A stretch of 14,129 nucleotides of DNA from NCBI GenBank assembly GCA_050012475.1, contig JBEKHC010000204.1, positions 1-14,129 on the forward strand, in the 5' to 3' direction. The stretch comes from Candidatus Velthaea sp. Its GTDB lineage: Bacteria > Vulcanimicrobiota > Vulcanimicrobiia > Vulcanimicrobiales > Vulcanimicrobiaceae. Of the stretch, positions 1 to 14,129 are shown in pieces. The translations under genes were made by a program, and so were the position numbers. The notes below the pieces were generated by a model that saw only the letters and a list, made by a program, of their open reading frames with translations, was not told the DNA's origin and did no database searches. Positions within the stretch are counted from its first letter, which is position 1. Each line of letters begins with the position of its first letter.

Positions 1-142
1 TCTCCAGGTAAGGATTGCTGCTTGAGTACGCCCAGCGCGGCGTCTCGGATGAGTCGCCCTCGCGCTTCCAGCGTTGCCCTTTTGGGCCGCGAGCCGTCGA
101 GCGGCTCCAGAAGCACGCATCCTATGGGCCTACAGGCCGCCC
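1..142 (-). repeat. Inverted, diverged copy of 1142-1291 (gene end + intergenic + promoter + leader); truncated by window edge
   Basis: Reverse complement of 1-56 matches 1235-1291 with 3 substitutions and 1 indel; similarity continues more loosely to 142/1142 (GGCGGCCtgTAGgCCCATAG vs GGCGGCCccTAGcCCCATAG). Confidence 0.9.
26..54 (-). promoter_or_regulatory. ECF-type promoter copy 1 (ACTCATCC-N15-GCGTAC), pointing off-window to the left
   Basis: Exact bipartite motif seen on the - strand; same boxes as at 1237-1265. Confidence 0.75.
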
Positions 143-198
143 ACGAACATTTCGGCCTGCGCCGGATCGGCGTCCGTTGCGCCGCGAAGCGCGGTAGG
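130..198 (-). pseudogene. 3' remnant of a paralog of the 926-1153 small secreted protein
   Basis: Reads ..TDADPAQAEMFVGGL* versus ..PDVDPMVEVNKLLLGGP*; the stop codon sits at the homologous position of the inverted repeat; in-frame TGA at 199-201 and no signal peptide upstream. Confidence 0.4.
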
Positions 199-357
199 TC
201 AAGCTTCGTTTTCGGTGCCGGGCATCGGCGGACGCCTGTGGTCGGCTTGAACGTCAGGCACGCCGCCGGAGGTGACTCGCGATTCAGTAAATGCGTTCGC
301 GATCTGGTGAATGCTCGTGGCCGTGGGGTGCGAGATTCGCCCGTACGATCGAGTCCG

Positions 358-507
358 CTATCGGGCGTTGCCGACATGCACGACGGCCAGCGCCCAGTCG
401 CGCGACGTGCGGGTGCGCACCAGATAACCGTAGCTCGTCCGATCGTATACTTGAAAGCCTGCCCGCAGCGCCTCGCTGACGGAACGAAAGACCATGATGC
501 CTGCCAT
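358..507 (-). CDS. 49-aa hypothetical protein MAGIMVFRSVSEALRAGFQVYDRTSYGYLVRTRTSRDWALAVVHVGNAR
   Basis: ATG at 507 with GAGGG Shine-Dalgarno, own promoter (564-593) and leader; a second partial copy at 12626-12690 preserves the reading frame. Confidence 0.8.
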   Translation of the reverse strand: MAGIMVFRSVSEALRAGFQVYDRTSYGYLVRTRTSRDWALAVVHVGNAR

Positions 508-529
508 TGCGTGCGCCCTCGGCCAGCGG

Positions 530-556
530 TTGTGCGATGTGCGACCTTGAGTCGCT
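530..556 (-). repeat. 27-nt leader AGCGACTCAAGGTCGCACATCGCACAA, perfect inverted copy of 874-900
   Basis: 27/27 identity seen directly; begins 8 nt after the CGTA box. Confidence 0.95.
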
Positions 557-563
557 ACGTTAA

Positions 564-593
564 GTACGCGCGCGACCGCGCAAACGGATGAGT
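564..593 (-). promoter_or_regulatory. ECF-type promoter copy 2 (ACTCATCC-N16-GCGTAC) upstream of the 49-aa gene
   Basis: Bipartite motif, correct orientation, intergenic. Confidence 0.8.
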
Positions 594-837
594 TCGTCGG
601 ACACCAAGGACTCTCGGTCAAGCGCGCTGATGAGGTGAGATGTAACGATCGCTCCAGGATCGCGTCAACTCGGCCGCCCCGGTGTTTATGCGATCCCGAG
701 CCCCGAGCGCTTCACAAATCGAACTGAAAACGTCCGCGGTTTCCCCGGTTCGGATGACCGGTAGTAAGGGTGGATCGCGCAGCTCGACGCGGCACGGAAA
801 GCTTGCGCGTTAACCGGGAACCTTTCGTATCCGAAGG

Positions 838-867
838 ACTCATCCAGACACCTCTCCCCGCGCGTAC
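838..867 (+). promoter_or_regulatory. ECF-type promoter copy 3 (ACTCATCC-N16-GCGTAC) upstream of 926-1153
   Basis: Bipartite motif, divergent from copy 2. Confidence 0.8.
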
Positions 868-873
868 AGATGC

Positions 874-900
874 AGCGACTCAAGGTCGCACATCGCACAA
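874..900 (+). repeat. 27-nt leader, identical to 556-530 (- strand)
   Basis: 27/27 identity; begins 7 nt after the CGTA box; contains a GCGAC/GTCGC hairpin followed by a CA-rich tract. Confidence 0.95.
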
Positions 901-925
901 ACGCTAGAAGAATGTGGAGATCGAA

Positions 926-1153
926 ATGAAGAATGGAATACTGCGGGCGGCGCTGCTGGGAGTAGTCGCGAGTGCTTCGTTCAGCGTGACGCAAGCGGCT
1001 TCGCTGGCCGCGATGACGAGCTATTCCGCGCCGGCGACCGCGACGAACACCTGCGCGGTGGTCAATCCCGCTAAAGCGGCCTCGAAGAACGCCCCCGCCC
1101 CGGACGTCGATCCGATGGTAGAGGTCAACAAACTACTGTTAGGCGGCCCCTAG
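926..1153 (+). CDS. Small secreted hypothetical protein, 75 aa
   Basis: GGAG at 916-919, ATG 926; Sec-type signal (MKNGILRAALLGVVASASFSVTQA); Ala/Thr-rich linker; ends DVDPMVEVNKLLLGGP. Confidence 0.75.
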   Translation: MKNGILRAALLGVVASASFSVTQAASLAAMTSYSAPATATNTCAVVNPAKAASKNAPAPDVDPMVEVNKLLLGGP

Positions 1154-1291
1154 CCCCATAGTGATGCGCGCGCCGGGGTCGCTCGAGCCGCTCTGCGGTT
1201 CCCCGCAAAGGGCAACGCGCTTGAAGCGCGAGACCGACTCATCCGAGACGCCGCGCCGGGCGTACTCCAAGCAGCAGTCCTCACCTGGAGA
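1142..1291 (+). repeat. Right arm of the inverted duplication (partner of 1-142)
   Basis: Alignment by eye to the reverse complement of 1-142. Confidence 0.9.
1237..1265 (+). promoter_or_regulatory. ECF-type promoter copy 4 (ACTCATCC-N15-GCGTAC) upstream of 1340-1585
   Basis: Bipartite motif, intergenic, correct orientation. Confidence 0.8.
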
Positions 1292-1339
1292 CACCGAAAG
1301 ATATCCGCAAATGACAACAAGTGAAAAGGAACGAATTAC

Positions 1340-1585
1340 ATGAAGATCAGTTTACCGAACATCCAACGGCTCGTGATCGCAAGCGCACTCGCATCCGGAC
1401 TGGTTTCAGCCGGTGTTGCTGCGTCGGCTCAGACAAACACGGAGCCTGCCGCGACGATAACCACGAATGCAACGAACGTGTCGATGTCGACCGTTGACCC
1501 GAAGGCCAAACGTCAGGCCGAGTTGGAACAAGAGAACGCCGATGCCCGTCGCGTGGAATTCCGCTTTCTGGGCACGAGTCTCTAA
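1340..1585 (+). CDS. Small secreted hypothetical protein, 81 aa
   Basis: AAAGGA Shine-Dalgarno before ATG; signal peptide with ASA/Q cleavage; Thr-rich linker, then VDP and a charged, probably helical C-terminus. Confidence 0.8.
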   Translation: MKISLPNIQRLVIASALASGLVSAGVAASAQTNTEPAATITTNATNVSMSTVDPKAKRQAELEQENADARRVEFRFLGTSL

Positions 1586-1765
1586 CGCAGTAGCGACTAA
1601 CGAGAGAGCGCCGGATCCGCGCGCCATTTAAGCCGCTCCAACCGGTACGGATGGACCCGTTGTCCTTTGTGTACCGTCCTCGCGATTTGCACGTTTGTAC
1701 GACTGTGGTTTGTCGTCATCACTGTCGACGATATTATCTCGACTTCGCATCGATGACCACTTAAC

Positions 1766-1794
1766 GTTCAAACCTTAGGCGGTTACGAGCGTAG
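1766..1794 (+). promoter_or_regulatory. Variant ECF-type promoter (GTTCAAAC-N15-GCGTAG) upstream of the lipoprotein/haloperoxidase genes
   Basis: -10 GCGTA exact and spacing matches; -35 TCAAAC differs from TCATCC at 2 positions. Confidence 0.4.
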
Positions 1795-1913
1795 ACCCGT
1801 TGGCTGCTAACCGACTGACTGGCGGCGTGTCTCTTGCGCGCTTCCAATTCTCTTGCCAGCTGCTCTTGTCGCATATTAAGAAACAATACCTCCTTGCCCA
1901 AAGGACATTACTC

Positions 1914-2486
1914 GTGCTCTATCAACGTCGCATTGTTCCCGCGGCGGCAACGCTCGCCGTGACTGTTCTTGCCGCATGCGGTGGGGGCGGCAGCACCGCA
2001 TCGCCGACACCGGCTACCGTGCCTGCGCCGGTGGTCACCGGATCGGCCACACCATCGGCACCCAAAACACCGGCGCCGACAGCTGCTCCCACGCCGACAC
2101 CGGCTGCCGCACCCCTCGCCACGGCGCAATTAGGTGGGGCGCCCGGCTTCGTGAACGCGCAATCGCATACCGTGTACGTATTCGATGGCGATCTGAGCGC
2201 ACCGGGTACGTCGACCTGCAACGGCGCTTGTGCAGCCGTTTGGCCGAGCGTTGCCGCCACCGCCGCAACAACCTATCCCGCGCCCTTCGGCGAAATCACG
2301 CGGTCGGACGGAAGTTTCCAGCTCACCTACGCCGGTCGGCCACTCTATACGTTCGTCGTCGACACGGCACCCGGCTCGATCGCCGGTAATGGCATCACGT
2401 CGTTCGGCAACACCTGGCATATTGCGCGTCCCAGCGGGGCTGTTGCGGCTACGCCGACGCCGATCCCGGGCGGACCGAGCTACTGA
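1914..2486 (+). CDS. COG4315 / Lipoprotein_15-type lipoprotein, 190 aa
   Basis: AAGGA + GTG at 1914; lipobox LAAC; Pro/Thr/Ala linker; TVYVFDGD..STCNGACAAVWP..QLTYAGRPLYTF..D..PG..GNG..W family motifs. Confidence 0.9.
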   Translation: MLYQRRIVPAAATLAVTVLAACGGGGSTASPTPATVPAPVVTGSATPSAPKTPAPTAAPTPTPAAAPLATAQLGGAPGFVNAQSHTVYVFDGDLSAPGTSTCNGACAAVWPSVAATAATTYPAPFGEITRSDGSFQLTYAGRPLYTFVVDTAPGSIAGNGITSFGNTWHIARPSGAVAATPTPIPGGPSY

Positions 2487-2677
2487 GGCGGCCGATCCGC
2501 TGCAACGGCGATCGGCATGGCCTGACTATGCCGTTGCGATTGGTCGTTGCGCGGGTTCTGTCGCGAAGTTTGAGCGTGATAGGTGATGGGATCGGTGAGG
2601 ACGCTTTGAAGCGATCGATCGGAGCGGGAATCACTCGAATCGAACGCCGCAGGTTTTCGTCGGAGGAGGAAACCGAA

Positions 2678-4264
2678 GTGAAACGCAGTGCGTTTGTCGG
2701 TGTTGCGGGAGCCGGACTGCTCGCCGGAGTGCCGGCTGCGGCTCGGGCGACGGCGACGGCGACGTCTGACGATGCGAAGTATCGGCCCGACGTTGTCTAC
2801 CGCCGCCGGGTTGCCGCCGCTGCTGAGGCGCGCGCCGCGTACAAGACATCGCGCGCGAACGGAGACGAAGCGCGGTACGCGGCGAGCGGCTACCTCGGCA
2901 GTTACGCTAAAGGCTTGCCGCACGAGGCAAACGGGAACGTCTACGAGGACTCATTCCAATCGATGGTTCGAGCGATTGATGCGCGCAATCCGGCGCTGTT
3001 GGATTTCTTCGCATCGCGGACGCTGCACAACCTCGTCGCCATCATCATCCTGCCGAACGGAGAACTTGCCGGCTGCGATTATACCGGCTACTTCGTACCG
3101 CCGGCGCCGACGCTGGCATCTGCTCGAACGGCCGCCGACGCGATCGAACTCTATTGGCAAGCATTGACGCGCGATGTTCCGGTAGTGGATTATGATACCG
3201 ATCCGACCATTGCCAAGGCCTGCGCGGACCTTTCGCGGCTGACCGACTTCGATGCACCGCGCGTACATGGAGCGATCACGCCGCAGACGATTTTTCGGGG
3301 TCCCGGACGCACGCTGAGCGGACCATATCTGTCGCAATTCTTCTGGCTCGATGTCCCGATTGAACTTGGCCAACTGTCCTCTCAGCGGCGCTCCATGCCG
3401 GTCCGCCACGATTATCTCACCGATCGCACCAGCTGGCTCGCGGCTCAGGACGGCCGGTCTGGCGTGGAACTCACGCCACGCGACGGCAGCCTGCGCTACA
3501 TGCAGACCGGTCGCGATCTGGCCGATTATCTATGGCAGCTCAACTCCCTAGTTGCGTGGCGAAACGCGGCCGCGATCGTCGGGGGGTTGCCGGACGAAGC
3601 TCGCACGGGTGAGTTCGACTTCGACGATATCGTCGCGATGATGTCCTTTGCATCGAGCATCTCCGGGGTTGCGACCTTGTACCAGAAGATGTTTATCCAC
3701 CGGCGCGCGCGTCCCGAAGCGTTCGGCGGTCTGGTGGATCGTGGGCCGAAAGCTTCGCCGCTGCATCCCGACATCTGGACGACGCCCGCGCTCGAACTGG
3801 TGCGCGCCCGCTACGATAGCCATCTGCTGCCTCAGGCGTATTTGGAAGGCTGTCCGACCCATCCCACGTATCCCTCCGGTCACGCCGCTCTTGCGGGCAC
3901 CGGTGTAACGGTGCTCAAGGCGCTGGTCAACGAATCGTACGTCCTCCCGGCGCCGGTCGTTCCGTCGCGTGACGGCTTGCGGCTCGAACCCTATAAGGGT
4001 CCGCCGTTGACGCTCGGCGGCGAGCTCGATAAGTTGGCCGAAAACATCGCCTTGGGACGCGGCGCCGCCGGCGTGCATTTCCGCTCGGATTCGTACGCCG
4101 GGCTGCGGAACGGCGAGGCCGCAACCCTCTCGCTGATGCGCGACCGAGTCACCGCGATCGGCGACGGCGCGCCGGTCTATAGCCTGACAACCGTCGACGG
4201 CGCCAAAGTGCGGATCGCGCCTGATGATAATTCACATATCCCGAAGGCGACGCGTTCAACCTAA
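2678..4264 (+). CDS. Vanadium-dependent haloperoxidase (bromoperoxidase-like), exported, 528 aa
   Basis: GGAGGAGG + GTG at 2678; Tat-like MKRSAF.. signal; vanadate-binding motifs YQKMFIHRRARPEAFGG, PTHPTYPSGHA and GRGAAGVHFRSD; N-terminal NGDE..SYAKGLPH. Confidence 0.92.
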   Translation: MKRSAFVGVAGAGLLAGVPAAARATATATSDDAKYRPDVVYRRRVAAAAEARAAYKTSRANGDEARYAASGYLGSYAKGLPHEANGNVYEDSFQSMVRAIDARNPALLDFFASRTLHNLVAIIILPNGELAGCDYTGYFVPPAPTLASARTAADAIELYWQALTRDVPVVDYDTDPTIAKACADLSRLTDFDAPRVHGAITPQTIFRGPGRTLSGPYLSQFFWLDVPIELGQLSSQRRSMPVRHDYLTDRTSWLAAQDGRSGVELTPRDGSLRYMQTGRDLADYLWQLNSLVAWRNAAAIVGGLPDEARTGEFDFDDIVAMMSFASSISGVATLYQKMFIHRRARPEAFGGLVDRGPKASPLHPDIWTTPALELVRARYDSHLLPQAYLEGCPTHPTYPSGHAALAGTGVTVLKALVNESYVLPAPVVPSRDGLRLEPYKGPPLTLGGELDKLAENIALGRGAAGVHFRSDSYAGLRNGEAATLSLMRDRVTAIGDGAPVYSLTTVDGAKVRIAPDDNSHIPKATRST

Positions 4265-4365
4265 CTCAAGCGCAAATCTTGTCGCCTGCCCAGATTGCGC
4301 AGGCTGAACGCCCGCGTTGAGCGAGAAAGCAACGAGCGAACATGAGCGAGAACGGGGACCGCGCG

Positions 4366-4902
4366 ATGAGCGTCGCACATGATCGAGGTGACGGAAGGAC
4401 AAGTTGGCTCGCCATATCATCGAGCCCAGCCGTTCGAGGCCGCTTCGCTCTCGCCGTCGCATTCGTCATACTCGCAGGCTGCACGCCCGGCTCCTTCGCC
4501 GGACTGAACGCGGGCGCTGGCGTTGGCGGTCCGTCGACGACGATCGACGTCGATTTGACAACTCACCCACAAGGCACGTCGCCCGCTGGCACGGCGGCCG
4601 GCTACGCGCCGCTCGTGACGATGCTGGCCGTCGGCGACTCCCTTCGCTTCACGAACAGCGACGGCTTTGCGCACACCGCGACCGCGATCCCTGGGAACCC
4701 GCCGACGTTCCCAGCGGCGTACCCTTTCACTAGCTCGGCGCTGATTTCGAGCGGCGCGACCCTCTCGAGCGGTTTCTCCTCCGGCAATTTGCAAGCCGGT
4801 GCGACTTCCCAGGTGCTGCTCGCCGACAAACCGGGCAGCTACGTCTTCGGCTGCTTCTATCACTACGGTGCGCCGATGCGCGCCGTCATCGTGGTGCACT
4901 GA
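4366..4902 (+). CDS. Cupredoxin (type-1 blue copper) lipoprotein; start uncertain (4342/4366 or later)
   Basis: Lipobox ILAGC; VGDSLRFTNSDGFAHTAT and PGSYVFGCFYHYGAPM give His + Cys-x2-His-x4-Met ligands; stop overlaps the next ATG (TGATG). Confidence 0.9.
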   Translation: MSVAHDRGDGRTSWLAISSSPAVRGRFALAVAFVILAGCTPGSFAGLNAGAGVGGPSTTIDVDLTTHPQGTSPAGTAAGYAPLVTMLAVGDSLRFTNSDGFAHTATAIPGNPPTFPAAYPFTSSALISSGATLSSGFSSGNLQAGATSQVLLADKPGSYVFGCFYHYGAPMRAVIVVH

Positions 4903-6059
4903 TGCGCACCGTAGACCGGTGGCTGCGCCGCTCGCTGGTGGCAACCGTCGTCCTCGCCGCCAGCGCGTTCCTTCCGCAGCGTCCCTCGCAGGCGATGCCG
5001 ATCTTCGCGCAGCGCTATCAATTGCGATGCGCCGCGTGCCACACCGTATTGCCGGAACTCAACGCCTTCGGCAACGCCTTTCGCGACCACGGCTTCCGCT
5101 TACCGCCGGCGGCTCCGGTCCACGGCAACACGGGCGTCGCGCTGCGTTACAACAATGAGTACGAGGCCGATCCCGTGCCCGGCATGCGACGCTTTACACC
5201 GACTGCCTCGCTGCTTTCGGAGCAAAACATCGGCGCGATCGGCGCCTATCTGCACTACAACGTGGGAGCGGGCGGCGCGCCGGGCGCGCCGTATTTGGGC
5301 TATCTCGTCACTTATAACGAGCATACGCACTCGCTCTATCGTTTAGGGCTCTACGAGTTGCCGCTGACCCAATCGCCCGGGCAGCGGCTGGACGACATTG
5401 CGGAGTACGGCTACCTTGGAACGACGGTCGGCCAGAACGATCTCGCGCTCAACGCGCCCCGCCTCGGCTTTGAGGCGCAGCGCGACGTCGGGCAAACGCG
5501 CATCGCGACCTCGATCGCATTCGGTGAGTTCAAGGGCGCGGCATATGGCGGTGCGCCCGTCTTCGACAACGTGTCAACGCGTGCCGCACGACCCGAGATC
5601 GAGCTCTTCGCGCATGGCCCGCTCTTGCGCAACGTCGACTTTAACGCGGAGATCATCGACGGCGAGCGTGCGATCAGGCTCCCCTCGCGCTCGCCCTTCG
5701 ACGATCCTTACGCACGCCTGGGTTTCGGTTTCGAAACCTCCTTTCTCAAGAAGCGGCTGGATCTCGAGGCGCAACAGTGGCTTGGGCGCGACAATGATGC
5801 CGACGGCGCCGGCAACGCGGTCGACTCGAGCGGTGGCTACGCGCGCCTGAAATACTTCGTCACGCCGCACTTCTACACCGCGGCTCGGTACGACACGGCG
5901 GCAAATCCTTTCCCGACGCGGGGGTTCGTCTTCTACGCCGGAGCACTAGTGACGGGACATGCTCGGCTGGAGATCGAGGAACGGTTAAACGCGCTGCACG
6001 GCAGCTCGCAGTTCGGCGGCGAGTTCATCGTCGGATTTCCCTGGCCGCTCGGATATTAA
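4902..6059 (+). CDS. Cyc2-like fused monoheme cytochrome c / outer-membrane beta-barrel, 385 aa
   Basis: Signal peptide then AMPIFAQRYQLRCAACHTVLPELNAFGNAFRDHGF, matching the Cyc2 N-terminal pattern AxPxFAxx..CxxCH..PxLxxxGxxFxxxG(F/Y); remainder has alternating amphipathic, aromatic-rich strands. Confidence 0.8.
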   Translation: MRTVDRWLRRSLVATVVLAASAFLPQRPSQAMPIFAQRYQLRCAACHTVLPELNAFGNAFRDHGFRLPPAAPVHGNTGVALRYNNEYEADPVPGMRRFTPTASLLSEQNIGAIGAYLHYNVGAGGAPGAPYLGYLVTYNEHTHSLYRLGLYELPLTQSPGQRLDDIAEYGYLGTTVGQNDLALNAPRLGFEAQRDVGQTRIATSIAFGEFKGAAYGGAPVFDNVSTRAARPEIELFAHGPLLRNVDFNAEIIDGERAIRLPSRSPFDDPYARLGFGFETSFLKKRLDLEAQQWLGRDNDADGAGNAVDSSGGYARLKYFVTPHFYTAARYDTAANPFPTRGFVFYAGALVTGHARLEIEERLNALHGSSQFGGEFIVGFPWPLGY

Positions 6060-6067
6060 CGTAAGCC

Positions 6068-6849
6068 ATCAAAGTGAGATCCGTTCGAGGAAGGGCGTTC
6101 CTCGCAACCGACATCTTGGGAGTTTCGGGACGCGCTATGCTCAACGCTCTGATCGGGGCACGCCCGATCCGGATCTCTTCGCCGAACTTGCTCCCGCAAC
6201 GCTGCACAAAAAGTTGCCGGCGTTACGAAAAGCGCTTAGTGGCGGGCTCTCACCGACACACTGCGTACTCTCGGCGAACTGCTCGCCCACCTCGAGTCCA
6301 TCGACAGGTCAATTGAGCGTCTGAGCAACGACGTGGCGAGTATGATCGTCCCTTTTTCCCAAGCGATCGACCTCCTCGACACCAGTCCCGGGGTTAATCG
6401 CAAGACAGCAGAAGTGGTAATCTCCGAATCGGCGCGGATATGGGCCGCTACCCATCAGCAAACTACTTGGTGTCATAGGATGAAATGTGGTCCTGGAAAC
6501 GACGAGTCTGCCGGCAAACATTTCTCCGGCAAGACGCGCAGGGGCTCGAAGTGGCTGCGCATTGCGCTCGTGGAGTCAGCCTCGGCGGCGACTCGCATGA
6601 AGGGCACATACCTTGCCGCGCTGTACGCTCGCGTCAAGGGGGCGTCGTGGTCACAAAAAGACAATCATCGCCCTTACGCACTCGATCCTTGTGTGATCGT
6701 CTATCATCTCCTTGAGCGAGATCGGCCCTACGACGAGTTCGGCGGACTACTTTATCGAGCGCCAGCAGATAGATGACTACGAACGACGGTTCGTCAAGCA
6801 ACTCGAACGCATGGGTTACGCGGTCTTCCTCACAAAGCGGGCCGCGTAG
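6068..6849 (+). mobile_element. IS110-family transposase remnant (C-terminal part, multiple frameshifts)
   Basis: ATDILGVSGRAMLNALI, LLDTSPGVNRKTAEVVISE, PGNDESAGKHFSGKTRRGSKWLRIALVE, TYLAALY, IVYHLL and RRFVKQLERMGY are spread over different frames; N-terminal DEDD domain absent. Confidence 0.9.
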
Positions 6850-7044
6850 AGCTAATGTTTACCTCAGATTTGGAACGAGCGTTCGCGCCGATACGCGACG
6901 GCCTCGCCGCTGCCGCTCCACACGATCCTCGAACTGCTCTTGCTTCCAACGACGACGTCGAGGCGCGCGTGTTTGGTTTGATAAAATCACGGCGCAACTC
7001 GTGACTCAGCACGGCGTTCGCGACCCTCGATCGACCGGACCATT

Positions 7045-7811
7045 TCAGGTGCGATGCGACGCCGAATCGCGAAGCAGCCCGGTAGCCTCCTCTACGAGCG
7101 TCGTCGAATGCAGTAGCGTTCGGGCGAGCCAGCCTTGCGCATCCGGCACGTAGACGAAAATCGAGTGAACGTCGGGAACGCCGCTTGGGTCGGGCTGCAC
7201 AGCCACGCCGAAGGCGAGCATCGGCGCGTGGACCGACGCGATCGTACCGCTTGCAAAGCGCCACCCCGGCACTGCAAGCCGGACAGATGCGCGCTTCGCG
7301 CGCCACGACATCGGGTGTGTCGTAAGGGGGATCGAGCGTCTCTGTTTGCAAAGCGCAACCGCTGAACGCGAGCCGGACAGATGCGCGCTTCGCGCGCCAT
7401 GATATCGGGTGTGTCGTAAGGGGATCGAGCGTCTCTGTTTGCAAAGCGCCACCGCTGCACGCGAGCCGGACAGATGCGCGCTTCGCGCGCCATGACATCG
7501 GGTGTGTCGTAAGCGGGATCGAGCGTCTCTGTGACCAGCGTCGCAACAGCGTTGTCCCGATCGAGGCTAGTTCAATGGTTTTCGAAGAGTGCATTCGCGA
7601 TCGGACATGCGTCCTCGGCAGCGCGTCGCGACGAAGGTAACGAGCACGGGCGCGCCGCGCAACTCGTGCAACGAAAACGGAGCGTTGCGTTGATCGACCA
7701 GCGCTGTTGTAAGCAGGTCGAGCGGACGGAATGCGCTCGCGTCTGTTGCGCCAAAAGTCACGAGGGACCCGAGCCACAACGCTCAGCCGCGACCAGGATT
7801 CGCATCAACAT
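7045..7811 (-). pseudogene. SCO1/SenC-family pseudogene, paralog of 8543-9169
   Basis: ALVDQRNAPFSLHELRGAPVLVTFVATRC / DACPIANALF / TLDP.YDTP.VMAREA / PGWRFASG / GVPDVHSIFVYV..LARTLLHSTTLVEEATGLLRD lie in shifting frames; ATG 2 nt after the lipoprotein stop. Confidence 0.92.
7251..7532. repeat. Three head-to-tail units of 95, 93 and 94 nt inside the SCO pseudogene
   Basis: Units 7251-7345, 7346-7438 and 7439-7532, each TTGCAAAGCG..GCCGGACAGATGCGCGCTTCGCGCGCCA..GATCGAGCGTCTCTGT. Confidence 0.95.
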
Positions 7812-7813
7812 GC

Positions 7814-8389
7814 TTAATCGGCGATGGGGTTGAGTGGCCCCCCGGGTGAGGTGGAGGGAGAACCGTTCGGCGGTGAGGTCGCCGGCGCGGACGTCGCAGA
7901 GCTTGACGGGCGCGCGATGTGCCAGGTCGCGCCGAACGAGGTGATGTCGTCGCCGTTAGTCTGCCCGGAAGCCTGATCGACCGTGAACGTGTAGAGCGGC
8001 CTTCCGCCGAAGGTGAGCTGTTGCATGCCGGTGTCCGAGCGCGTGATTGTCGAGAAGCCTGGCGACAGCCCCGTGCCGGAGGCCACGGGCACGGCCGGCC
8101 AAACGCCTGCGCACGTTGCTGTGCACTGCGAGGTCCCCGGCGCCTTCAGATCGGCGTCGAAGACGTACACGGTGAAACCCGCGGCGTTTATGAAACCCGG
8201 GCTGCCGTTGAGCCGCGCGGTCGAGAGCGAATTCGCGCCGCCCGTCGTCGTGGGCGCATTGATTGTTGGCGGCGTTATTGGCGTGGTGCCGTAAGCTCCG
8301 CTCGTTCCGCCGCCGCTACAAGCGGCGAGCGAGCCTAGGGCGGCGACTAGGGCGAGGGCTGGTAGCGAGGCGGTGGGTCGCGGGTTCAC
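7814..8389 (-). CDS. COG4315 / Lipoprotein_15-type lipoprotein, 191 aa, paralog of 1914-2486
   Basis: GAGGAG + GTG at 8389; lipobox LAAC; TVYVFDAD..SQCTATCAGVWP..QLTFGGRPLYTF..TWHIARPS. Confidence 0.9.
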   Translation of the reverse strand: MNPRPTASLPALALVAALGSLAACSGGGTSGAYGTTPITPPTINAPTTTGGANSLSTARLNGSPGFINAAGFTVYVFDADLKAPGTSQCTATCAGVWPAVPVASGTGLSPGFSTITRSDTGMQQLTFGGRPLYTFTVDQASGQTNGDDITSFGATWHIARPSSSATSAPATSPPNGSPSTSPGGPLNPIAD

Positions 8390-8458
8390 AACGGTTAACT
8401 CCTCATTTGGACATTGTGACGCCAAGCGGACATTGAAACGACAAGCACACCGCTACGA

Positions 8459-8488
8459 GTACGCCCGGCGAGTATCGATCGGATGAAT
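8459..8488 (-). promoter_or_regulatory. ECF-type promoter copy 5 (ATTCATCC-N16-GCGTAC)
   Basis: Intergenic, about 70 nt upstream of the lipoprotein start. Confidence 0.75.
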
Positions 8489-8542
8489 CTCGGGCAGGAA
8501 TTGCGAACGCGGTGCGACGCCGAAAGATACGTCGATACTCGC

Positions 8543-9169
8543 TCAGAAAGAGCGCAAAGCCGGGTCGCGCAGCAGCTCCGCGGCCTCGTCCACGAGCGTC
8601 GTTGAGAGCAGCAAGGTGCGCGCCAGCCGGCTGCGCGCGTCGAGGACGTAAACGAAGGTCGTGTGCACGTCGGGCACACCGCGGCGATCGGGCCCGACGT
8701 CGACGCCGAAGGCGCGCATCAACGCGCGGATTGCGTCGGGCGAACCGGTGGCGAACCGCCAACCCGGCACGCGTGCGGCGAAGACGTGCGCTTCGCGCGC
8801 CATGACAAAGGGCGTGTCATAGGCCGGATCGAGCGTCACGGTGAGCAGCGTCGCCGCCGTATGGTCGTGATCGAGCCGCGACCGCAGGCGGGCAAAGAGC
8901 GCGTTTGCGATCGGACACGCATCCAGGCAACGCGTCGCGATGAAGGTCACGATCACGGGCACGCCACGCAGGTCGCGCAGCGCGAACGGCGCGCCGCGTT
9001 GGTCAATGAGCGCGATACCGCGCGGATCTGGCGAACGCGACGCGTGCGCATCCGCCGCTGCGATTGGCCCGAGGACGGCCAGCGTTAAGATCAGCGAAGA
9101 GGCAAGCGTAAGCGTCGCCAGTGACGCTGTCGCTCGTATCAGCCTCCGGTTGGCGAAGTATTTGTACAT
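8543..9169 (-). CDS. SCO1/SenC-family copper chaperone, 208 aa
   Basis: AAAGGAG Shine-Dalgarno; N-terminal hydrophobic segment; LIDQRG, TFIATRCLDACP (CxxxC), TLDPAYDTP, WRFATG and conserved His (DVHT). Confidence 0.93.
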   Translation of the reverse strand: MYKYFANRRLIRATASLATLTLASSLILTLAVLGPIAAADAHASRSPDPRGIALIDQRGAPFALRDLRGVPVIVTFIATRCLDACPIANALFARLRSRLDHDHTAATLLTVTLDPAYDTPFVMAREAHVFAARVPGWRFATGSPDAIRALMRAFGVDVGPDRRGVPDVHTTFVYVLDARSRLARTLLLSTTLVDEAAELLRDPALRSF

Positions 9170-9208
9170 CCGAAGGTCTCCTTTGACGATGAGAGGGCCG
9201 TCGCTGTT

Positions 9209-9238
9209 GTACGTCTGAGCCGACCACCTCGGACGAGT
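9209..9238 (-). promoter_or_regulatory. ECF-type promoter copy 6 (ACTCGTCC-N16-ACGTAC)
   Basis: One mismatch per box; about 40 nt upstream of the SCO ATG. Confidence 0.65.
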
Positions 9239-9383
9239 CTCCTCAGATGATGTTCGTGCCGGCCGCGCTGATCGATCGGCGCGATTATACGCGGGTCGAG
9301 CGGGCGCCGTGCGCGATTGTTCGTTGCGCGGAGGGGCACGGGGGATGCGAGCACCGCTCTCAGCGCAACTAGGAATCCCATCA

Positions 9384-9412
9384 ATACGCTCAACGGGCGT
9401 CGGGGGTTGATC
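9384..9412 (-). promoter_or_regulatory. Variant ECF-type promoter (GATCAACC-N15-GCGTAT), further upstream of SCO
   Basis: -35 TCAACC has one mismatch to TCATCC; -10 exact; intergenic. Confidence 0.5.
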
Positions 9413-9468
9413 GGTGTAAGTGTGCTGCCTTGTGTCCTGCCCCTGCTCGATGCGATCGACGTGAACTT

Positions 9469-9488
9469 CGTCCTTCGGCTGAAGGACG
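9469..9488 (-). terminator. Perfect 8-bp hairpin downstream of the cupredoxin-fusion gene (possible terminator or stabiliser)
   Basis: CGTCCTTC-N4-GAAGGACG, 50 nt after the stop; no U-tract. Confidence 0.35.
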
Positions 9489-9538
9489 GCGTGATTCGTC
9501 CGATTTGGCCGGGCCGCTGTGGAATAGCGGATGCGCCG

Positions 9539-10399
9539 TTATCTCGCGGCGCCCGTCACGACGATGGTACCGCGCATGTACGGATGAAACCCGCACAGGA
9601 ACGCATACCTTCCCGGCTTGTGAAAGCGGTGGATCCAGGTGTTCTTCGCGTCAAGAGCGCCTGAGTCGAAGCTCCGGTCGAGCGCGGTGATTGTGTGCGG
9701 CTCCCCGTCACGGTTGACAAACGTAACCGCTGTGCCGGCGGCGACCCTGAGCACGCGCGGATGATACGCGAAGTCGACGATGTCGACCGTCGTCTTGGCC
9801 GGGGGCAATGCCCTGCCAGAGTCCGGCGAGGAAGGATCGACGGCGCGCGTTTCAAGTTCGGCGACTCCGTCGTCAGCGAACAATCGTTCCTTCGTCGGCG
9901 CGTCGAGATCGACCCGAGCAAGGTTGGCTGTGCGACCGAAATGATATGTCAAACGCGACCGAGACCCGTTGAGCAGCCCGAAATCGAACGATGCGTCGGC
10001 GGCTAAGCCCGGAACATCGACAACCGTCTGAATCGGCTGCGGGGTCGGGCCCGGGCCGAACGACAGATCGAGGGGAATTCGCACGTCCAGAACGGGGATG
10101 TGGCCGTAATTCGTCACCGCGCAGCGAGCGAACGGAGTTGGCCCGCTGTTGTGCACCCACTGGCCGCCTCGGGTCGTGAGTAGCAGGGTCTGCGCGGGCG
10201 GCGCCGCGTGTTCGGCCAGATCGAGCGGCGCGAACTCGGGACGGCAGGACAGATGGATCGCGGGCCGCCGCTCCAAATCGACTCGCGCCTTCTCGTAGGA
10301 TGCCCCGACGAATGCGCCGACCGCGGCAAGCGATCCGCTTATGGCCGCGAGGAGCGTCAGAAAGATCTCGACGTCACTTCGATTGATCGAGGGTCGCAC
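9539..10399 (-). CDS. Membrane-anchored protein with unknown central domain and C-terminal plastocyanin/amicyanin-like cupredoxin, 286 aa
   Basis: N-terminal TM helix (IFLTLLAAISGSLAAVGAFVGA); C-terminal VDIVDFAYHP..GTAVTFVNRDGEPHTIT..FDSG..PGRYAFLCGFHPYMRGTIVV with His/Cys/His/Met ligands. Confidence 0.88.
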   Translation of the reverse strand: MRPSINRSDVEIFLTLLAAISGSLAAVGAFVGASYEKARVDLERRPAIHLSCRPEFAPLDLAEHAAPPAQTLLLTTRGGQWVHNSGPTPFARCAVTNYGHIPVLDVRIPLDLSFGPGPTPQPIQTVVDVPGLAADASFDFGLLNGSRSRLTYHFGRTANLARVDLDAPTKERLFADDGVAELETRAVDPSSPDSGRALPPAKTTVDIVDFAYHPRVLRVAAGTAVTFVNRDGEPHTITALDRSFDSGALDAKNTWIHRFHKPGRYAFLCGFHPYMRGTIVVTGAAR

Positions 10400-10406
10400 G
10401 TTTCTT

Positions 10407-10435
10407 GTACGCGCACCGGCACGCTACGGATGACT
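10407..10435 (-). promoter_or_regulatory. ECF-type promoter copy 7 (AGTCATCC-N15-GCGTAC)
   Basis: Ends 7 nt before the GTG at 10399. Confidence 0.75.
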
Positions 10436-10658
10436 CCGCGTGCAGCGCCTACGCTTTCCGATTGCGCGTTGCCGAGGAAGCGGCGCGACGAAACGCGCTT
10501 GCGCGGTAGCAGGGAGGCGGCGCAGCCGGCGGAGACCTCGGAGCGAGGGTCGCCGCGGCCGTCCTGCGGCGTTGCAATATTCCACTGCGCACCGAACGCT
10601 ACCAGTCCACCCCGTGCGTGCTGCCAGACCGCGTATCGGCGACGAGCGTCTACAGCGG

Positions 10659-10751
10659 GGCACCGGATGCATGGCGGCAAATGCCGGCTGTGATCACTGC
10701 TACGCGAATCCGTTTACTTCGGAGAATGGCTTCGACTTGACGGTTCGTCCT
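10659..10751 (+). pseudogene. DUF5131 (phage Gp37/Gp68) N-terminal fragment
   Basis: GTGCMAANAGCDHCYA..ENGFDLTVRP resembles the family motif TGCTKxSxGCDHCYA...GFDLTLRP with an internal deletion; no start codon and the rest of the domain is missing. Confidence 0.65.
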
Positions 10752-10853
10752 AACTGCTGGAATGAAAACGGCCGAGCCGTCATTCGCAAAACTCCCACGT
10801 CAGACCGATTGCGGCAGAAACGTGCCTGCTGCGTCCGCCGCATCGGTTTCAAT

Positions 10854-10950
10854 ATGAAGGCCGCCAGAGCGGAGATCCACGAGGTCCAAAGTGTTGACGA
10901 AGCGCCCCGAGCGCTCGCCGAATCGTCCCATTGATTTCGTTGTGGTGGCT
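10854..10950 (+). pseudogene. Possible response-regulator receiver-domain fragment
   Basis: AEIHEVQSVDEAPRALAE / RPIDFVVV (frameshift) recalls beta2-alpha2-beta3 of REC domains; short, and the phospho-Asp is absent. Confidence 0.3.
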
Positions 10951-11206
10951 TCACCGTTCATCCCTGCACGAGAACCGGCACCTCACCAGCATGCGCCTCA
11001 CTCGTGGGCCGCAACTCGGCCCGTCCCCCGCGCTCCAACCCTGCGCTCTATGCGGGCGACTGTCATGCATTACCGCTCGACTTGATCATTATGAGGCTGA
11101 CAGGGTCGGACTGCACGCCGATAGCGCAGCTCGACGCGTCAGCAAAAGCAAGCTCACCGTTCACGCTGAAACGCGCCCCCTCTGTCCGAAGGACTCATCC
11201 CCAAGG

Positions 11207-11236
11207 ACTCATCCACGCGCCTCCCTACGCGCGTAT
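11207..11236 (+). promoter_or_regulatory. ECF-type promoter copy 8 (ACTCATCC-N16-GCGTAT) with a tandemly duplicated -35 box
   Basis: AAGGACTCATCC occurs at 11189-11200 and 11203-11214; 11185-11200 is identical to 830-845. Confidence 0.8.
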
Positions 11237-11239
11237 AAT

Positions 11240-11283
11240 AGATGAAGCTGCTCAAAGTTGCACGGCGCACATCGCACAAACGC
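11240..11283 (+). repeat. Third, diverged copy of the leader at 868-904
   Basis: CGCACATCGCACAAACGC is 18/18 identical to 887-904; upstream AGATGaAGCtgCTCAAaGTtGC aligns to AGATGcAGCgaCTCAAgGTcGC with a 7-nt insertion. Confidence 0.85.
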
Positions 11284-11445
11284 ATGATTGGCATGTCGCG
11301 CTCGAAGTGCCAACGAGTAGCATCGGCGTACAGCGCGTCCGTGATCTCAAGAAGGAGGCAGGGTGCCCGATAGCGGCACTGCCTAGAGACTGCTGCCTGC
11401 GCTTCACGGAGTTCCATCTGCCAACAATTTGCGGAGGGGTAAATT

Positions 11446-11748
11446 GTGGAACAAACATGGTCTCTAGCAGACCGCAACGCTCTTGCCGAATCTCACCTCA
11501 ACCTCGCGTATGGAAGCGTTAACATCAGTGGAAACGCAGACGAGCGTATGCGAGCCCTGGGCGTCTCATCGGGAATGGTTGCGGAGACTCTGAACGCTCC
11601 TGATTGCGTGCGGCATCTCCCGCAATCAAACAACCTCTCCTATTTTTGCAAGTTTAATGGGCGGACTCTTCGCGTGATGACGACGCTCGAAGATTGCGTT
11701 ATCACGGTATCGTGGACGACCATTCGACCCCTTCCGATAAGACAATAA
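11446..11748 (+). CDS. DUF4258-like (RelE/BrnT-fold) small protein, 100 aa
   Basis: GGAGG + GTG; ISGNADERMRALGVSSGMVAETLNAPD...GRTLRV...VITV resembles the S-x-HA-x-ERM-x-x-RGI..V...L..P / LRV / VITV pattern (His replaced by Asn). Confidence 0.6.
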   Translation: MEQTWSLADRNALAESHLNLAYGSVNISGNADERMRALGVSSGMVAETLNAPDCVRHLPQSNNLSYFCKFNGRTLRVMTTLEDCVITVSWTTIRPLPIRQ

Positions 11749-11983
11749 CTTCTCGATCAGGCAGCGAGTAACTCCGCTGAGTGTCGAACCGTCGGGACCG
11801 AGCGGCCCAGACAATATTGGACTACTCTGACTCGCGAGGCTGGCGCAGGGCTGTTGACTTCCACACGCACGTTTGCGCTCGCAGCGCGGGCGTCCGCCCA
11901 CTGCCGAAACAGTCGGAACCTCGGGCGATAGTGATTGCTTCCTATAGCGGTCTTTTTTAGCACCGCGAGTGCGCCCGTCGCAT

Positions 11984-12436
11984 TTAGCGGTTCGCGAAGT
12001 CGCTGCCGGCAGTGCGCCAGACGCTGCCGTCGGCGAAATCAACTTCAGTGACGTTGCACGCAGCGTTTGGAAGTTCGCTGATGACGCTGTCCACCTCGAA
12101 GGCATGTTTTATCTGCACGCCCGGAGCGAAACGGCCTTTGTCCACGATGGTCTGCGTGAAGTCGCTGTCATTTACCGAAAACTTAACCGTCGTGGCCAAG
12201 ACTTTGCTCTTATTGACGAATGTCAACGCGAAGCTGCCAACGACGTACTGCGGCAGTTCCTCGTTGTTTGTCCCGGCAAGCAACGTGTTGACGTTGAACG
12301 ATGTTATCGCTACGGGTGACGTCGTGCCGTAGGCTACGGTTTGAGCGCCGTAGGCTAAGGTTTGAGCAGTCGCGAGGCCCGGAGTCGCGGTAGTCATCGC
12401 GGCTAACGCGCAAATCTTTAGGAAGCGATTAGACAT
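11984..12436 (-). CDS. Secreted hypothetical beta-rich protein, 150 aa
   Basis: GGGAGAG + ATG 12436; signal peptide ending ATA/Q; LTFVN..A..VKF..DKGRFAPGVQIKHAF..CNVTEVDFADGSVW. Confidence 0.85.
   Translation of the reverse strand: MSNRFLKICALAAMTTATPGLATAQTLAYGAQTVAYGTTSPVAITSFNVNTLLAGTNNEELPQYVVGSFALTFVNKSKVLATTVKFSVNDSDFTQTIVDKGRFAPGVQIKHAFEVDSVISELPNAACNVTEVDFADGSVWRTAGSDFANR
12326..12367. repeat. In-frame 21-nt tandem duplication (AQTLAYG AQTVAYG) at the signal-peptide cleavage site
   Basis: GCCGTAGGCTAcGGTTTGAGC / GCCGTAGGCTAaGGTTTGAGC, 20/21 identical. Confidence 0.9.
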
Positions 12437-12477
12437 TGAAAACTCTCCCTGGCAAACGAATGATCTTACTACACCGA

Positions 12478-12507
12478 TTACGCGCGACACGGGAGTCGCG
12501 GATTACT
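12478..12507 (-). promoter_or_regulatory. ECF-type promoter copy 9 (AGTAATCC-N16-GCGTAA)
   Basis: About 40 nt upstream of ATG 12436, correct orientation. Confidence 0.7.
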
Positions 12508-12625
12508 CCGGCCTTCAATTTGTCAACGCGCGCAAACTTCTGGTCCACGTCCACACGCTGAATTGAGGTCCAGAACTATCCGCATCCCTGGCGGGGTAAG
12601 GGTTTCTCAGACCATTCGAGCCGCT

Positions 12626-12690
12626 GACATACACGACGGCCAACGCCCAGCCGCGCGGCGTTCGAGTGCGCACCAAGTAACCGTAGCTCG
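12626..12690 (-). pseudogene. 5'-truncated copy of the 49-aa gene
   Basis: 57/65 nt identical to 373-437; SYGYLVRTRTPRGWALAVVYV versus SYGYLVRTRTSRDWALAVVHV. Confidence 0.85.
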
Positions 12691-12957
12691 GCGGCGCCGA
12701 ATCGAGGTTCATTCCCGGCGCATATGACTCGTTCACGCTGCAGGACCTTATCGCTAATGGGGGCACGAGCTGCTTTGCGCACTTGCAAACGACCGAGCTG
12801 CGACAATCATCGCGGTTGCCGCGGATCGCTTTAGGCGCAGACGTCATCATCATCCGGCCATTAGCCGGTTCCGAGCCGCGTGATCTTATCGCGTGGCACG
12901 ACGGGCCGTGGCGACATCTCGCCCAAACCTCTGGCCTTGACCAGCGGAGACGTCTGC

Positions 12958-13371
12958 ATGCCCTGGTCCGAACCCGTGAATTCGCAGCCGATCAGCCAGA
13001 TGTCGCTCGTCGCCGGCATGATCGACTGCGCTCTCAGCGACACCCGCGACCCACACCCAAACCCTGACCAAAGCACGGGTTCAGCCCCATGTCTTCGACG
13101 ACGCCACCATCGATCGGATCGAGCGGGTCCATCGCGAGCAACTTGAGGTTCGTCGATATCTACGCGGAACAGATCCAACGCTGGAGGGCCGAGGGCCGTG
13201 CGCTGAGCAAACGTTGGAACTGGACCGTTTGGAAAAGCAGAACCGCCGCCTGCGCCAGTCACCACGGACGTGCTCGCCCTGGCCCACGAACTCCGCAAGG
13301 GGACCATCGACCGTATCATGGCCATGAGCGACCTCGAACTCGGCTGCACGGGCGCGGATGAAATCGAGTAG
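12958..13371 (+). pseudogene. Conserved hypothetical helical protein broken by four frameshifts
   Basis: GGAG + ATG; joins as MPWSEPVNSQPISQMSLVAGMIDCALSDTRD / QTLTKARVQPHVFDDATIDRIERVHREQLE / FVDIYAEQIQRWRAEG / PCAEQTLELDRLEKQNRRLRQ / VTTDVLALAHELRKGTIDRIMAMSDLELG. Confidence 0.7.
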
Positions 13372-13380
13372 CAACACCTA

Positions 13381-13599
13381 TTAGCCATCCTTTGACAGGG
13401 CCATGATGGCAACCGTCATCTGGTCAATCGATATCTCGCCGTCGACGTAGTGCTGCGCAATTGCAAACGCCTCCCGCGGATCGACGTGCAACCCGTCGAC
13501 GTGCAACGAGCCAAGAACACTCGCGACATCGTGAGCGCGCTGTCGGCGAAGGCGGGTTTCTTCTGGGCCAAGCTCTCTCAATGCGGCTGCTACACTCAA
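13381..13599 (-). CDS. VbhA/FicA-like antitoxin; start uncertain (TTG 13599 or 13581)
   Basis: RQRAHDVASVLGSLHVDGLHVDP..AFAIAQHYVDGEISIDQM fits the R..V..A.(S/T)xxxEG...P.......Y..GEI pattern, with Asp for Glu. Confidence 0.7.
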   Translation of the reverse strand: MSVAAALRELGPEETRLRRQRAHDVASVLGSLHVDGLHVDPREAFAIAQHYVDGEISIDQMTVAIMALSKDG

Positions 13600-13628
13600 C
13601 TACGCGCGCAATAGGGTCGTGGATTACT
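13600..13628 (-). promoter_or_regulatory. ECF-type promoter copy 10 (AGTAATCC-N15-GCGTAG)
   Basis: Immediately upstream of the VbhA-like ORF; shares GGAGTAATCC(G/A)CGAC with copy 9. Confidence 0.6.
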
Positions 13629-13671
13629 CCTTGGCCTGGGAAGTTTAGGCGCGGAAATTGTGGTTCGCGGT

Positions 13672-13900
13672 GAGCAGACTACGTTAGCAAGCACATGCAA
13701 GTCGAGCGCTTTCGCGGTTGACGACGTGTGCTGCATTCTTGGCCGAGATGGACGGGATTGTTCCCTCGGATCGGCCATCCGCGCTCATCGAGCGTCGTTA
13801 CACCACAGGCGAGCCCGGTCGGCCGCCGATTCCCTTGGAACAAATGCTCAAGAGCATTTCTTGCAGCAGCAGTTCAACCTTAACGATCCGGCCTTTGGAG
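13672..13900 (+). mobile_element. IS5-family transposase N-terminal remnant
   Basis: QTTLAS / AFLAEMDGIVP..ALIE..Y..GEPGRPPIPLEQML / HFLQQQFNLNDPA match the IS5 N-terminus (FLAEM..VVPW..LIEP.YP..GRPP.PLE.MLR.HFLQQWFNLSDPA); frameshifted, no DDE domain. Confidence 0.88.
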
Positions 13901-13999: not shown

Positions 14000-14129
14000 C
14001 TACTGCGCCGGATAGGGGAGCGTGGCGCCGGAGATGACCCGGCCCGACGCGTCGACGAGCTCGAGCGAGGTTGGACGCGGGAAGTCGCGGACGAAAAGTG
14101 TCGCGGTGCTCCCGCGGACCTCGGGTTTC
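14000..14129 (-). CDS. 3' end of a gene entering from the right (..KPEVRGSTATLFVRDFPRPTSLELVDASGRVISGATLPYPAQ*); possibly an anti-sigma factor C-terminus
   Basis: 42 open codons with high GC at third positions, ending TAG at 14000-14002; not in the ORF track because it lacks a start; product call is from remembered resemblance only. Confidence 0.65.
   Translation of the reverse strand, partial: KPEVRGSTATLFVRDFPRPTSLELVDASGRVISGATLPYPAQ

Follow-up and report, generated by a model that had tools for sequence, protein, structure and literature searches.

Candidate promoters of a probably autoregulated extracytoplasmic function sigma factor on a 14-kb island of Candidatus Velthaea sp.

Clustered regulons under sigma factors of the extracytoplasmic function (ECF) type, with autoregulated promoters, are well known. 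Here we consider a putative regulon of this kind on contig JBEKHC010000204.1 of Candidatus Velthaea sp. (C204, analysed over its entire 14,129 bp and hereafter called the window; 62.3% G+C, in an assembly of 5.36 Mb, 204 contigs and 64.2% G+C), which carries ten copies of a bipartite element with an ATCC-type upstream box and a CGTA-type downstream box. For the ECF11 group, to which the Rhodobacter RpoE-ChrR pair belongs, the accessible parts of two reports give the promoter as TGATCC-N16-CGTA, with starts mapped for S. oneidensis RpoE2 and binding sites for P. syringae PSPTO_1043 (PMC4336711, PMC5507510), and the accessible part of a classification lists it as GTGATC/CGTA (PMC7826278 supplement). 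The SigK-RskA pair (ECF19/18) is described, in the available portion of one report, as controlling a small M. tuberculosis regulon of mainly secreted proteins and as autoregulated via the promoter of an upstream gene (PMC7509140). The ECF206 and ECF207 groups, reported from Acidobacteria and Proteobacteria in the accessible part of their description (Casas-Pastor et al. 2021, PMC7826278), have a calcineurin-like phosphoesterase at position -1 from the sigma gene, a cupredoxin or cytochrome c at -2, and at +1 a zinc-finger anti-sigma with one helix, in which an RskA-like domain may or may not be present.

We conclude, with a probability of roughly 85%, that the ten oriented copies are promoters read by an ECF sigma factor encoded just past the right end of the window, a 74%-identical paralogue of which is encoded on another contig (C76) of the same genome. 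The most likely interpretation of the system is an ECF sigma/anti-sigma switch that regulates itself; the core of its output that is conserved is the sigma operon, with a blue copper protein at its head.

The element is far too frequent in the window to be a chance pattern. ATCC-N14-17-GCGTA matches nine times against a mean of 0.42 in 200 dinucleotide shuffles, of which none reached nine (maximum 3). Alignment of the nine strong copies gives GGA(C/G)T(C/A)ATCC(G/A)-N11/12-(C/T)G(C/G)GCGTA, and outside the searched pattern an A at -4 and a T at -2 before ATCC, as well as a G two bases 5' of GCGTA, are invariant in all nine. A two-box matrix derived from these sites, used with a listing threshold of 14 bits, scores them at 28-31 bits and a tenth copy before the SCO gene (GTCC...ACGTA) at 16.0 bits. 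Every copy is oriented toward the start of an open reading frame (ORF) 6 to 75 nt past CGTA, with P1 facing the contig end (Table 1, where distances are counted from the A of CGTA). The sequence-only reading had placed copies at these positions and had them pointing at start codons, the first one off the window; nine were re-found within a few bases and the orientation stands. Its copy at 9209-9238(-) exists, yet it is weak and lies within the background range. It is retained as P6 because an 87%-identical SCO paralogue on contig C13 has a matching weak box in the same place. Two further variants had been claimed, at 1766-1794(+) and 9384-9412(-). We reject both, since each stays below 14 bits in the matrix scan; the first scores 2.3 bits. 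A sigma-70-like TTGTCG-16-TATTAT at 1710-1737 may serve the unit behind the first variant instead; sigma-70-like promoter matches in the window number 5 against 2.9 expected, that is, chance level.

Across the genome, strong sites are nearly confined to the window. T[CA]ATCC-N15/16-GCGTA has 15 matches in the genome, nine of them on the 14-kb C204. Sites of 22 bits or more number ten in the real genome and zero in each of three simulated genomes, and below that score the counts converge. The ten strong sites of the form GGA(C/G)T(C/A)ATCC-N16/17-CGTA are the nine on C204 and one at C76:15309-15340 (26.1 bits), which was not part of the matrix. This site heads an operon containing an ECF sigma gene and an anti-sigma gene. 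Among the 55 Sigma70_r4_2 matches of the genome, the C76 sigma is the only one with the full motif upstream (within 2.3 kb). After the C76 anti-sigma gene come a 20.5-bit motif copy and then paralogues of the window's 150-aa, 81-aa and 49-aa proteins, the first of them 50% identical to its counterpart and lying behind that motif copy. Other intergenic matches to the core motif (on C8, C56, C1, C61, C182, C175 and C66) precede unrelated genes and were treated as chance.

A second sigma/anti-sigma pair adjoins the window. The contigs, assembled from four DNA runs, are fragmentary, and the loose end at 14127 continues an anti-sigma reading frame (Table 1). Over window positions 11252-14129 the metagenome contig L070 agrees with the window at 99.58% identity, and it runs on for another 1,273 nt; encoded on it are an anti-sigma of 238 aa, an ECF sigma of 189 aa and the end of a phosphoesterase. 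Since L070 runs on into this pair, the island carries its own sigma. The stretch is present in 20 DNA runs from 13 studies of peat, bog and soil and is therefore not an assembly chimera. A circular or tandem layout, with P1 reading into the right-end operon, is unsupported, as no joint between the window ends was found in the reassembled runs. The leader of P1 ends in TGGAGA, like that of the C76 operon.

Both sigmas have regions 2 and 4 only (Sigma70_r2 and Sigma70_r4_2, in proteins of 191 aa on C76 and 189 aa on L070), and the match of the sigma to NCBIfam TIGR02937 is 93.9 bits (cut-off 42.9). They are nearly identical in region 4, which has no cysteine in either; the island sigma has Cys 55 only (region 2), the C76 sigma Cys 55 and Cys 113. 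On both contigs the anti-sigma gene overlaps the stop codon of the sigma gene. The L070 anti-sigma is 70% identical to that of C76 and exceeds the cut-offs for RskA_N (31.6 bits, cut-off 27) and zf-HC2 (28.1 bits); the C76 protein has zf-HC2 and a weak RskA_N. All 20 homologues share H13, H37, C41 and C44, and the protein has one hydrophobic span. By Pfam, zf-HC2 is found in 20 of the 20 homologues, RskA_N in 16, RskA_C in one (E 0.0011) and a cupin family in none. An AlphaFold model (mean predicted local distance difference test score, pLDDT, 84) shows a helical N-terminal domain, a long helix spanning 102-142 and a beta-sandwich whose block means of pLDDT are 90-97; the likeness of this outer domain to RskA_C clusters by Atlas language-model features (0.88-0.89) is a lead only. 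The anti-sigma is of the membrane zinc-binding anti-sigma (ZAS)/RskA_N type.

Relatives carry the same association. Homologues of the sigma occur in 39 of 41 genomes searched, a tally that includes the unpublished G022 and G036, which contributed to no other result. For the promoter scan 41 loci were used (40 fetched plus L067), the first 36 in E-value order, skipping G022, and the last four out of order; three of the out-of-order loci are not independent, because the pattern beside the gene had already been seen when they were chosen. With the strict motif ATCC-N16/17-CGTA on the sense strand and zones set relative to the sigma start, matches were found at -100..+30 in 7 of the 36 ordered loci (11 of all 41; 5.3 kb searched) and at -1450..-1050 in 9 of the 36 (10 of 41; 15.1 kb). 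Over all 41 loci together there was one between these zones (38.3 kb) and none downstream (57.4 kb); the background of the strict motif is 205 matches per 10.7 Mb, about one per 52 kb. A scan of relatives had been proposed as a test of the original claim, and it came out in favour, with the core motif before the sigma homologue or its operon in 16 of the 36 ordered loci. The distal copy stands directly 5' of a cupredoxin gene in the three loci examined for this (G001, G003 and G013), and in L019 and L022, whose cupredoxin and sigma genes are divergently oriented, the motif still precedes the cupredoxin gene.

At positions that the search left unconstrained, the 21 sites of relatives have G before CGTA in 18, and T and C before ATCC in 14 each; the spacer is 16 nt in 12 and 17 nt in 9, and two sites (L007 and L027) read GTGATCC. 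A spacer of 16 or 17 nt and a -10 box containing CGT are common to these sites, the nine strong window sites and the C76 site. Locus L005 (G013:C45:109816-109870) has two copies back to back, 1 nt apart, one before the cupredoxin-sigma operon and the other facing a divergent gene for a 97-aa secreted protein. Antisense matches in L006, L024 and L025 were discarded as false positives, being a conserved coding motif of the phosphoesterase (GTCGTCCATCCCCA...GCGCGTA).

The proposal that the copies are ECF promoters is thus upheld, in that the same motif heads the sigma/anti-sigma operon on C76 and the homologues in relatives while a second pair adjoins the window. It is improbable that another sigma of the genome, rather than the island/C76 pair, reads these sites. 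Candidates are plentiful, with 48 of the 55 Sigma70_r4_2 matches over the cut-off, and ECF11, ECF18 and ECF19 factors elsewhere have ATCC/CGTA-like boxes in the accessible parts of their descriptions. Against such a reader, the full motif stands at the C76 operon alone among the genome's sigmas, it tracks the homologues of this sigma in relatives, and a second copy of the sigma adjoins the ten sites.

The copies might also be leftovers of segmental duplication, carried along with paralogous genes and mostly out of use. Flanks or leaders are indeed in common within P1/P4, P2/P3/P8 and P9/P10: P1 and P4 are copies of one another across about 140 nt (the upstream flank, including the tail of the upstream gene, and the leader), P2 and P3 have a 30-nt leader in common, and P9 and P10 a -35 flank. 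In addition, pseudogenes are present on the island, as are an IS110 fragment and a tandemly triplicated 93-bp unit, and orthologous targets in relatives lack the motif. Across flank families, by contrast, the boxes are 0.80-1.0 identical and the spacers and flanks 0.25-0.39; 31 pairs of sites from different families have an identity of 0.80 in the 10-nt -35 box, 0.31-0.39 in the spacers and 0.25-0.27 in the flanks. Furthermore, every copy keeps its orientation and its 6-75 nt to an intact ORF, and P5 and P7 have no flank in common with other copies. Disuse of most copies is therefore slightly less credible even than a different sigma. The earlier statement that most spacers are unrelated is largely right and holds across flank families, with P1/P4, P2/P3 and P9/P10 as pairs that have flank or leader sequence in common. 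Paralogues of the island target genes elsewhere in the genome (a module on C1, and on C60, C30, C25 and C9) have no motif, and those on C13 retain weaker boxes. The target paralogues without the motif, together with two same-genus SCO orthologues that also lack it, point to recent recruitment by promoter copying, and the island regulon probably grew by promoter duplication.

The third alternative, an operator of a non-sigma DNA-binding regulator, would be compatible with sequence-only evidence and with a bipartite motif, which some operators have, and is the least plausible of all: the boxes are unlike each other and form neither direct nor inverted repeats, the spacing is fixed at 16/17 with the orientation always toward a gene, no sigma-70-like promoter accompanies the sites, the motif stands before sigma genes, and its boxes agree with those of a promoter class whose starts have been mapped, as given in the accessible parts of the ECF11 reports.

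Comparison with the described systems places the locus near several of them. The suggested likeness to the Rhodobacter RpoE-ChrR promoter holds up as far as the accessible texts go: the core ATCC-N16-CGTA, autoregulation and H, H, C, C zinc-type anti-sigma ligands are common to both systems, and among solved structures R. sphaeroides RpoE (2q1z) is the best match to the sigma (E 2.4e-18). Judged by its sequence the promoter is ECF11-like, with TCATCC or TAATCC in the window where ECF11 has TGATCC. ChrR, however, is soluble with a C-terminal cupin, whereas the anti-sigma here is membrane-spanning with a beta-sandwich outer domain and no Pfam cupin, and the photolyase, peroxidase and catalase targets named in the accessible parts of PMC4336711 and PMC5507510 are absent among the copper and secreted targets here. 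With SigK-RskA the locus shares the one-pass RskA_N anti-sigma, a small and mainly secreted output and autoregulation through an upstream gene's promoter. SigK is only the third-best solved relative (E 1.1e-10). Unlike in ECF18/19, as far as their accessible descriptions go (PMC7509140, PMC7826278), two conserved cysteines in sigma region 4 are not present in either sigma, and Pfam detects RskA_C, a part of the SigK system, in just one of the 20 homologues. The sequence-only reading had also likened the -35 box to a CCATCC of SigK; no such promoter statement was found in accessible literature, and that likeness stays unconfirmed. The ECF206/ECF207 neighbourhood is the same as on C76 and in relatives. 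The ECF207 promoter is GGAATAAA/GTC in the accessible part of PMC7826278, against TCATCC/CGTA here, and ECF206 is said there to have none conserved. Membership in any one ECF group is not established, since ECF11 fails on the anti-sigma, ECF18/19 on the region 4 cysteines and ECF207 on the promoter.

Several observations weigh against our conclusion. The island sigma is absent from this assembly and known through L070, a near-identical contig of another sample. None of the runs on record that carry the stretch is RNA. The high scores of the window sites are circular, because the matrix was made from these very sites; the shuffle test, the C76 site and the relatives are independent of that circularity. 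Weak sites are indistinguishable from background in the comparison of real with simulated genomes. Enrichment in intergenic DNA across the genome, which had been put forward as a test, is not seen beyond this contig: core ATCC-N16/17-CGTA matches outside C204 are intergenic in 32 of 196 cases (16%) against 19% of the genome, as delimited by a crude self-trained gene caller, their number is the same as for other spacer lengths, and there is no upstream enrichment. The regulon is therefore small and island-bound. A strict match is missing in 20 of the 41 loci of relatives, and both same-genus SCO orthologues examined lack the motif. In same-genus genomes the only convincing motif is the sigma operon's own promoter, which means that regulon content is not conserved and that the individual island copies are unsupported by comparison; a whole-window DNA search of those genomes returned only short coding matches of 65-71% identity, so that orthologous intergenic regions could not be aligned. 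With two paralogous sigmas, which of them reads which site is not separable, and an inducing signal of copper, oxidant or thiol stress is a guess from the targets and the H-H-C-C domain, as is the envelope/redox stress of the sequence-only reading.

Table 1. Candidate promoter copies (P1 to P10) and the genes and operons associated with them; core match, ATCC-N14-17-GCGTA.
Feature	Coordinates	Strand	Details
P1 promoter copy	25..56	-	28.7 bits; core match 27-50(-); points off window's left end
P2, promoter of 49-aa protein gene	563..595	-	29.9 bits; core match 565-589(-); 57 nt to ATG at 507
49-aa protein gene (MAGIMVFRS...)	358..507	-	family without assigned function; no Pfam family
P3, promoter of 75-aa secreted protein gene	836..868	+	30.7 bits; core match 842-866(+); 59 nt to ATG at 926
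75-aa protein, signal-peptide-like N-terminus	926..1153	+	no Pfam family above cut-off
P4, promoter of 81-aa secreted protein gene	1235..1266	+	29.5 bits; core match 1241-1264(+); 75 nt to ATG at 1340
81-aa secreted protein	1340..1585	+	62% identical to C76:11463-11227, gene downstream of C76 sigma operon
P5, promoter of second Lipoprotein_15 (COG4315) gene	8458..8490	-	28.2 bits; core match 8460-8484(-); 70 nt to GTG at 8389
Lipoprotein_15 lipoprotein, lipobox LAACSGG	7814..8389	-	PF03640, E 1.8e-21
P6, weak promoter-like copy before SCO	9208..9240	-	16.0 bits, within background; 40 nt to start
SCO1/SenC copper chaperone or thiol-disulfide oxidoreductase	8543..9169	-	PF02630, E 3e-19; CxxxC intact (CLDAC)
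P7, promoter of 286-aa membrane-anchored cupredoxin	10406..10437	-	29.3 bits; core match 10408-10431(-); GTG at 10399, 8 nt past CGTA
Cupredoxin-domain protein, type-1 Cu ligands H, C, H, M	9539..10399	-	PF13473, 2.2e-10; PF00127, 3.8e-7
P8 promoter	11205..11237	+	29.2 bits; core match 11211-11235(+); ATG at 11242, 6 nt past CGTA, opens 43-codon ORF
100-aa protein, no assigned family	11446..11748	+	start 210 nt downstream of P8; no Pfam above cut-off
P9, promoter of 150-aa secreted protein	12477..12509	-	28.8 bits; core match 12479-12503(-); 42 nt to ATG at 12436
150-aa secreted protein, Vulcanimicrobiota/Eremiobacterota-specific family	11984..12436	-	unnamed Atlas clusters, Vulcanimicrobiota
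P10, promoter of VbhA-like small protein	13599..13630	-	28.1 bits; core match 13601-13624(-); in-frame TTG at 13581, 19 nt past CGTA
VbhA-like 66-72-aa protein	13381..13599	-	PF18495, 26.5 bits (cut-off 25.9)
Anti-sigma gene 3' end (last 42 codons + stop)	14000..14129 (residues from 14003-14128)	-	69% identical to residues 196-237 of C76 anti-sigma
C76 operon	headed by C76:15309-15340 motif	-	123-aa cupredoxin, 293-aa twin-arginine (TAT) metallophosphoesterase, 191-aa ECF sigma, 237-aa anti-sigma

The genes behind the motif encode the SCO protein (weakly preceded), the membrane cupredoxin, the COG4315 lipoprotein, three small secreted proteins, the 49-aa protein, the 43/100-aa unit and the VbhA-like protein. 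Start codons 8 nt (P7) and 6 nt (P8) past CGTA mean that messages there would be leaderless; judging from this spacing, those of P7 are probably of that kind, and its layout is kept in an 84%-identical paralogue on C13 (17.1 bits; start C13:26199). The longest ORF at P10 would open with a TTG at 13599, 1 nt past CGTA, and a 19-codon upstream ORF at P3 was rejected, its ATG lying just 3 nt past CGTA. The GTG behind P5 is preceded by GAGGAG. The P2 and P3 leaders can form a 6-bp hairpin (525-558(-) and 873-905(+); -9.0 and -9.7 kcal/mol; z -3.0 and -2.4) that begins 8-9 nt past CGTA, at about the predicted 5' end of the transcript, and is absent in P8. Just 5' of P8, at 11190-11215(+), the -35 box and its flank (AAGGACTCATCC) are tandemly duplicated. 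The toxin-antitoxin-like genes of the first description come down to the VbhA-like protein, whose borderline match is the whole support for that label, and no Fic-type partner was found in the window.

The 49-aa protein belongs to a family of 45-49 aa with the core SYGYLVRTRT..WALAVV and no Pfam family, present in eight genomic copies of 46-84% identity: window 358-507(-) and 12515-12853(-), and on contigs C76, C30, C60, C36, C14 and C116. On C76 and C60 the copy is near a paralogue of the 150-aa secreted protein, whose gene in the window contains a 21-bp unit twice (95% matches) in its N-terminal part, at 12326-12367.

A 528-aa protein with a twin-arginine-type signal, encoded at 2678-4264(+), is a clear homologue of vanadium-dependent bromoperoxidases (1qi9, E 1.1e-50); its neighbours are a cupredoxin-like protein, a COG4315 lipoprotein and a cytochrome c protein with CAACH, and the unit has no ECF motif in front of it. 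A module at 1914-6059(+), with Lipoprotein_15, a cupredoxin-like protein and a 385-aa cytochrome c protein, recurs at C1:105983-107095 (51-64% identity, with an added SCO gene), which hints at a set of genes for copper handling that is so far undescribed. A literature search on Lipoprotein_15/COG4315 function returned nothing useful. Fragments of an IS110-family transposase lie in several frames at 6074-6849(+) (PF02371, E 1.3e-6). They are followed by a degenerate SCO-like region at 6830-7777(-), whose longest ORF has an arginine-rich, implausible translation and which contains a 93-bp unit repeated 3.0 times at 92% identity (7251-7532).

How such a switch would operate can be outlined from its parts. 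The membrane anti-sigma would keep the sigma inactive until an envelope or thiol-oxidising signal, perhaps copper or an oxidant given the targets, frees it. The freed sigma would bind core polymerase and contact TCATCC at -35 and CGTA at -10, with transcription beginning about 6-9 nt past CGTA. Expression of its own operon would go up in this way, along with that of SCO, two cupredoxin genes, the COG4315 lipoprotein, the VbhA-like protein and four proteins that are small and secreted or tiny. The island promoters would have arisen by copying of promoter and leader before spare paralogues.

Eremiobacterota (WPS-2, Vulcanimicrobiota) abound in peat and in polar soils. No sigma-factor regulon from this group was found in the literature searched, most subscription papers being outside that search, and for an ECF sigma with SCO or cupredoxin no matching system was among the papers listed. 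We would tentatively go further and propose, at less than even odds, that the island captures a regulon being born: an ancestral one-operon circuit of blue copper protein, phosphoesterase, sigma and anti-sigma may have been duplicated, and its promoter, sometimes with the leader, copied before at least nine units. Spare copper paralogues (SCO, cupredoxin, COG4315 lipoprotein) and small secreted proteins specific to the phylum would thereby have been drawn into a new copper or oxidant response of peat Eremiobacterota that is lacking even in same-genus relatives.

For a specialist the switch is expected in kind, an ordinary type undescribed in this phylum, and what makes it worthwhile is its lineage, a density of ten sites in 14 kb and an evolutionary mechanism that can be seen. 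The two sigma paralogues, the membrane anti-sigma (ZAS/RskA_N) and some ten natural promoters that differ in strength make up a concrete, testable set, pointing to an output of copper and secreted proteins, and the promoters could be usable as orthogonal parts. Taken together, the island is a clean example from nature of a regulon that probably grew as promoters were duplicated beside the regulator gene.

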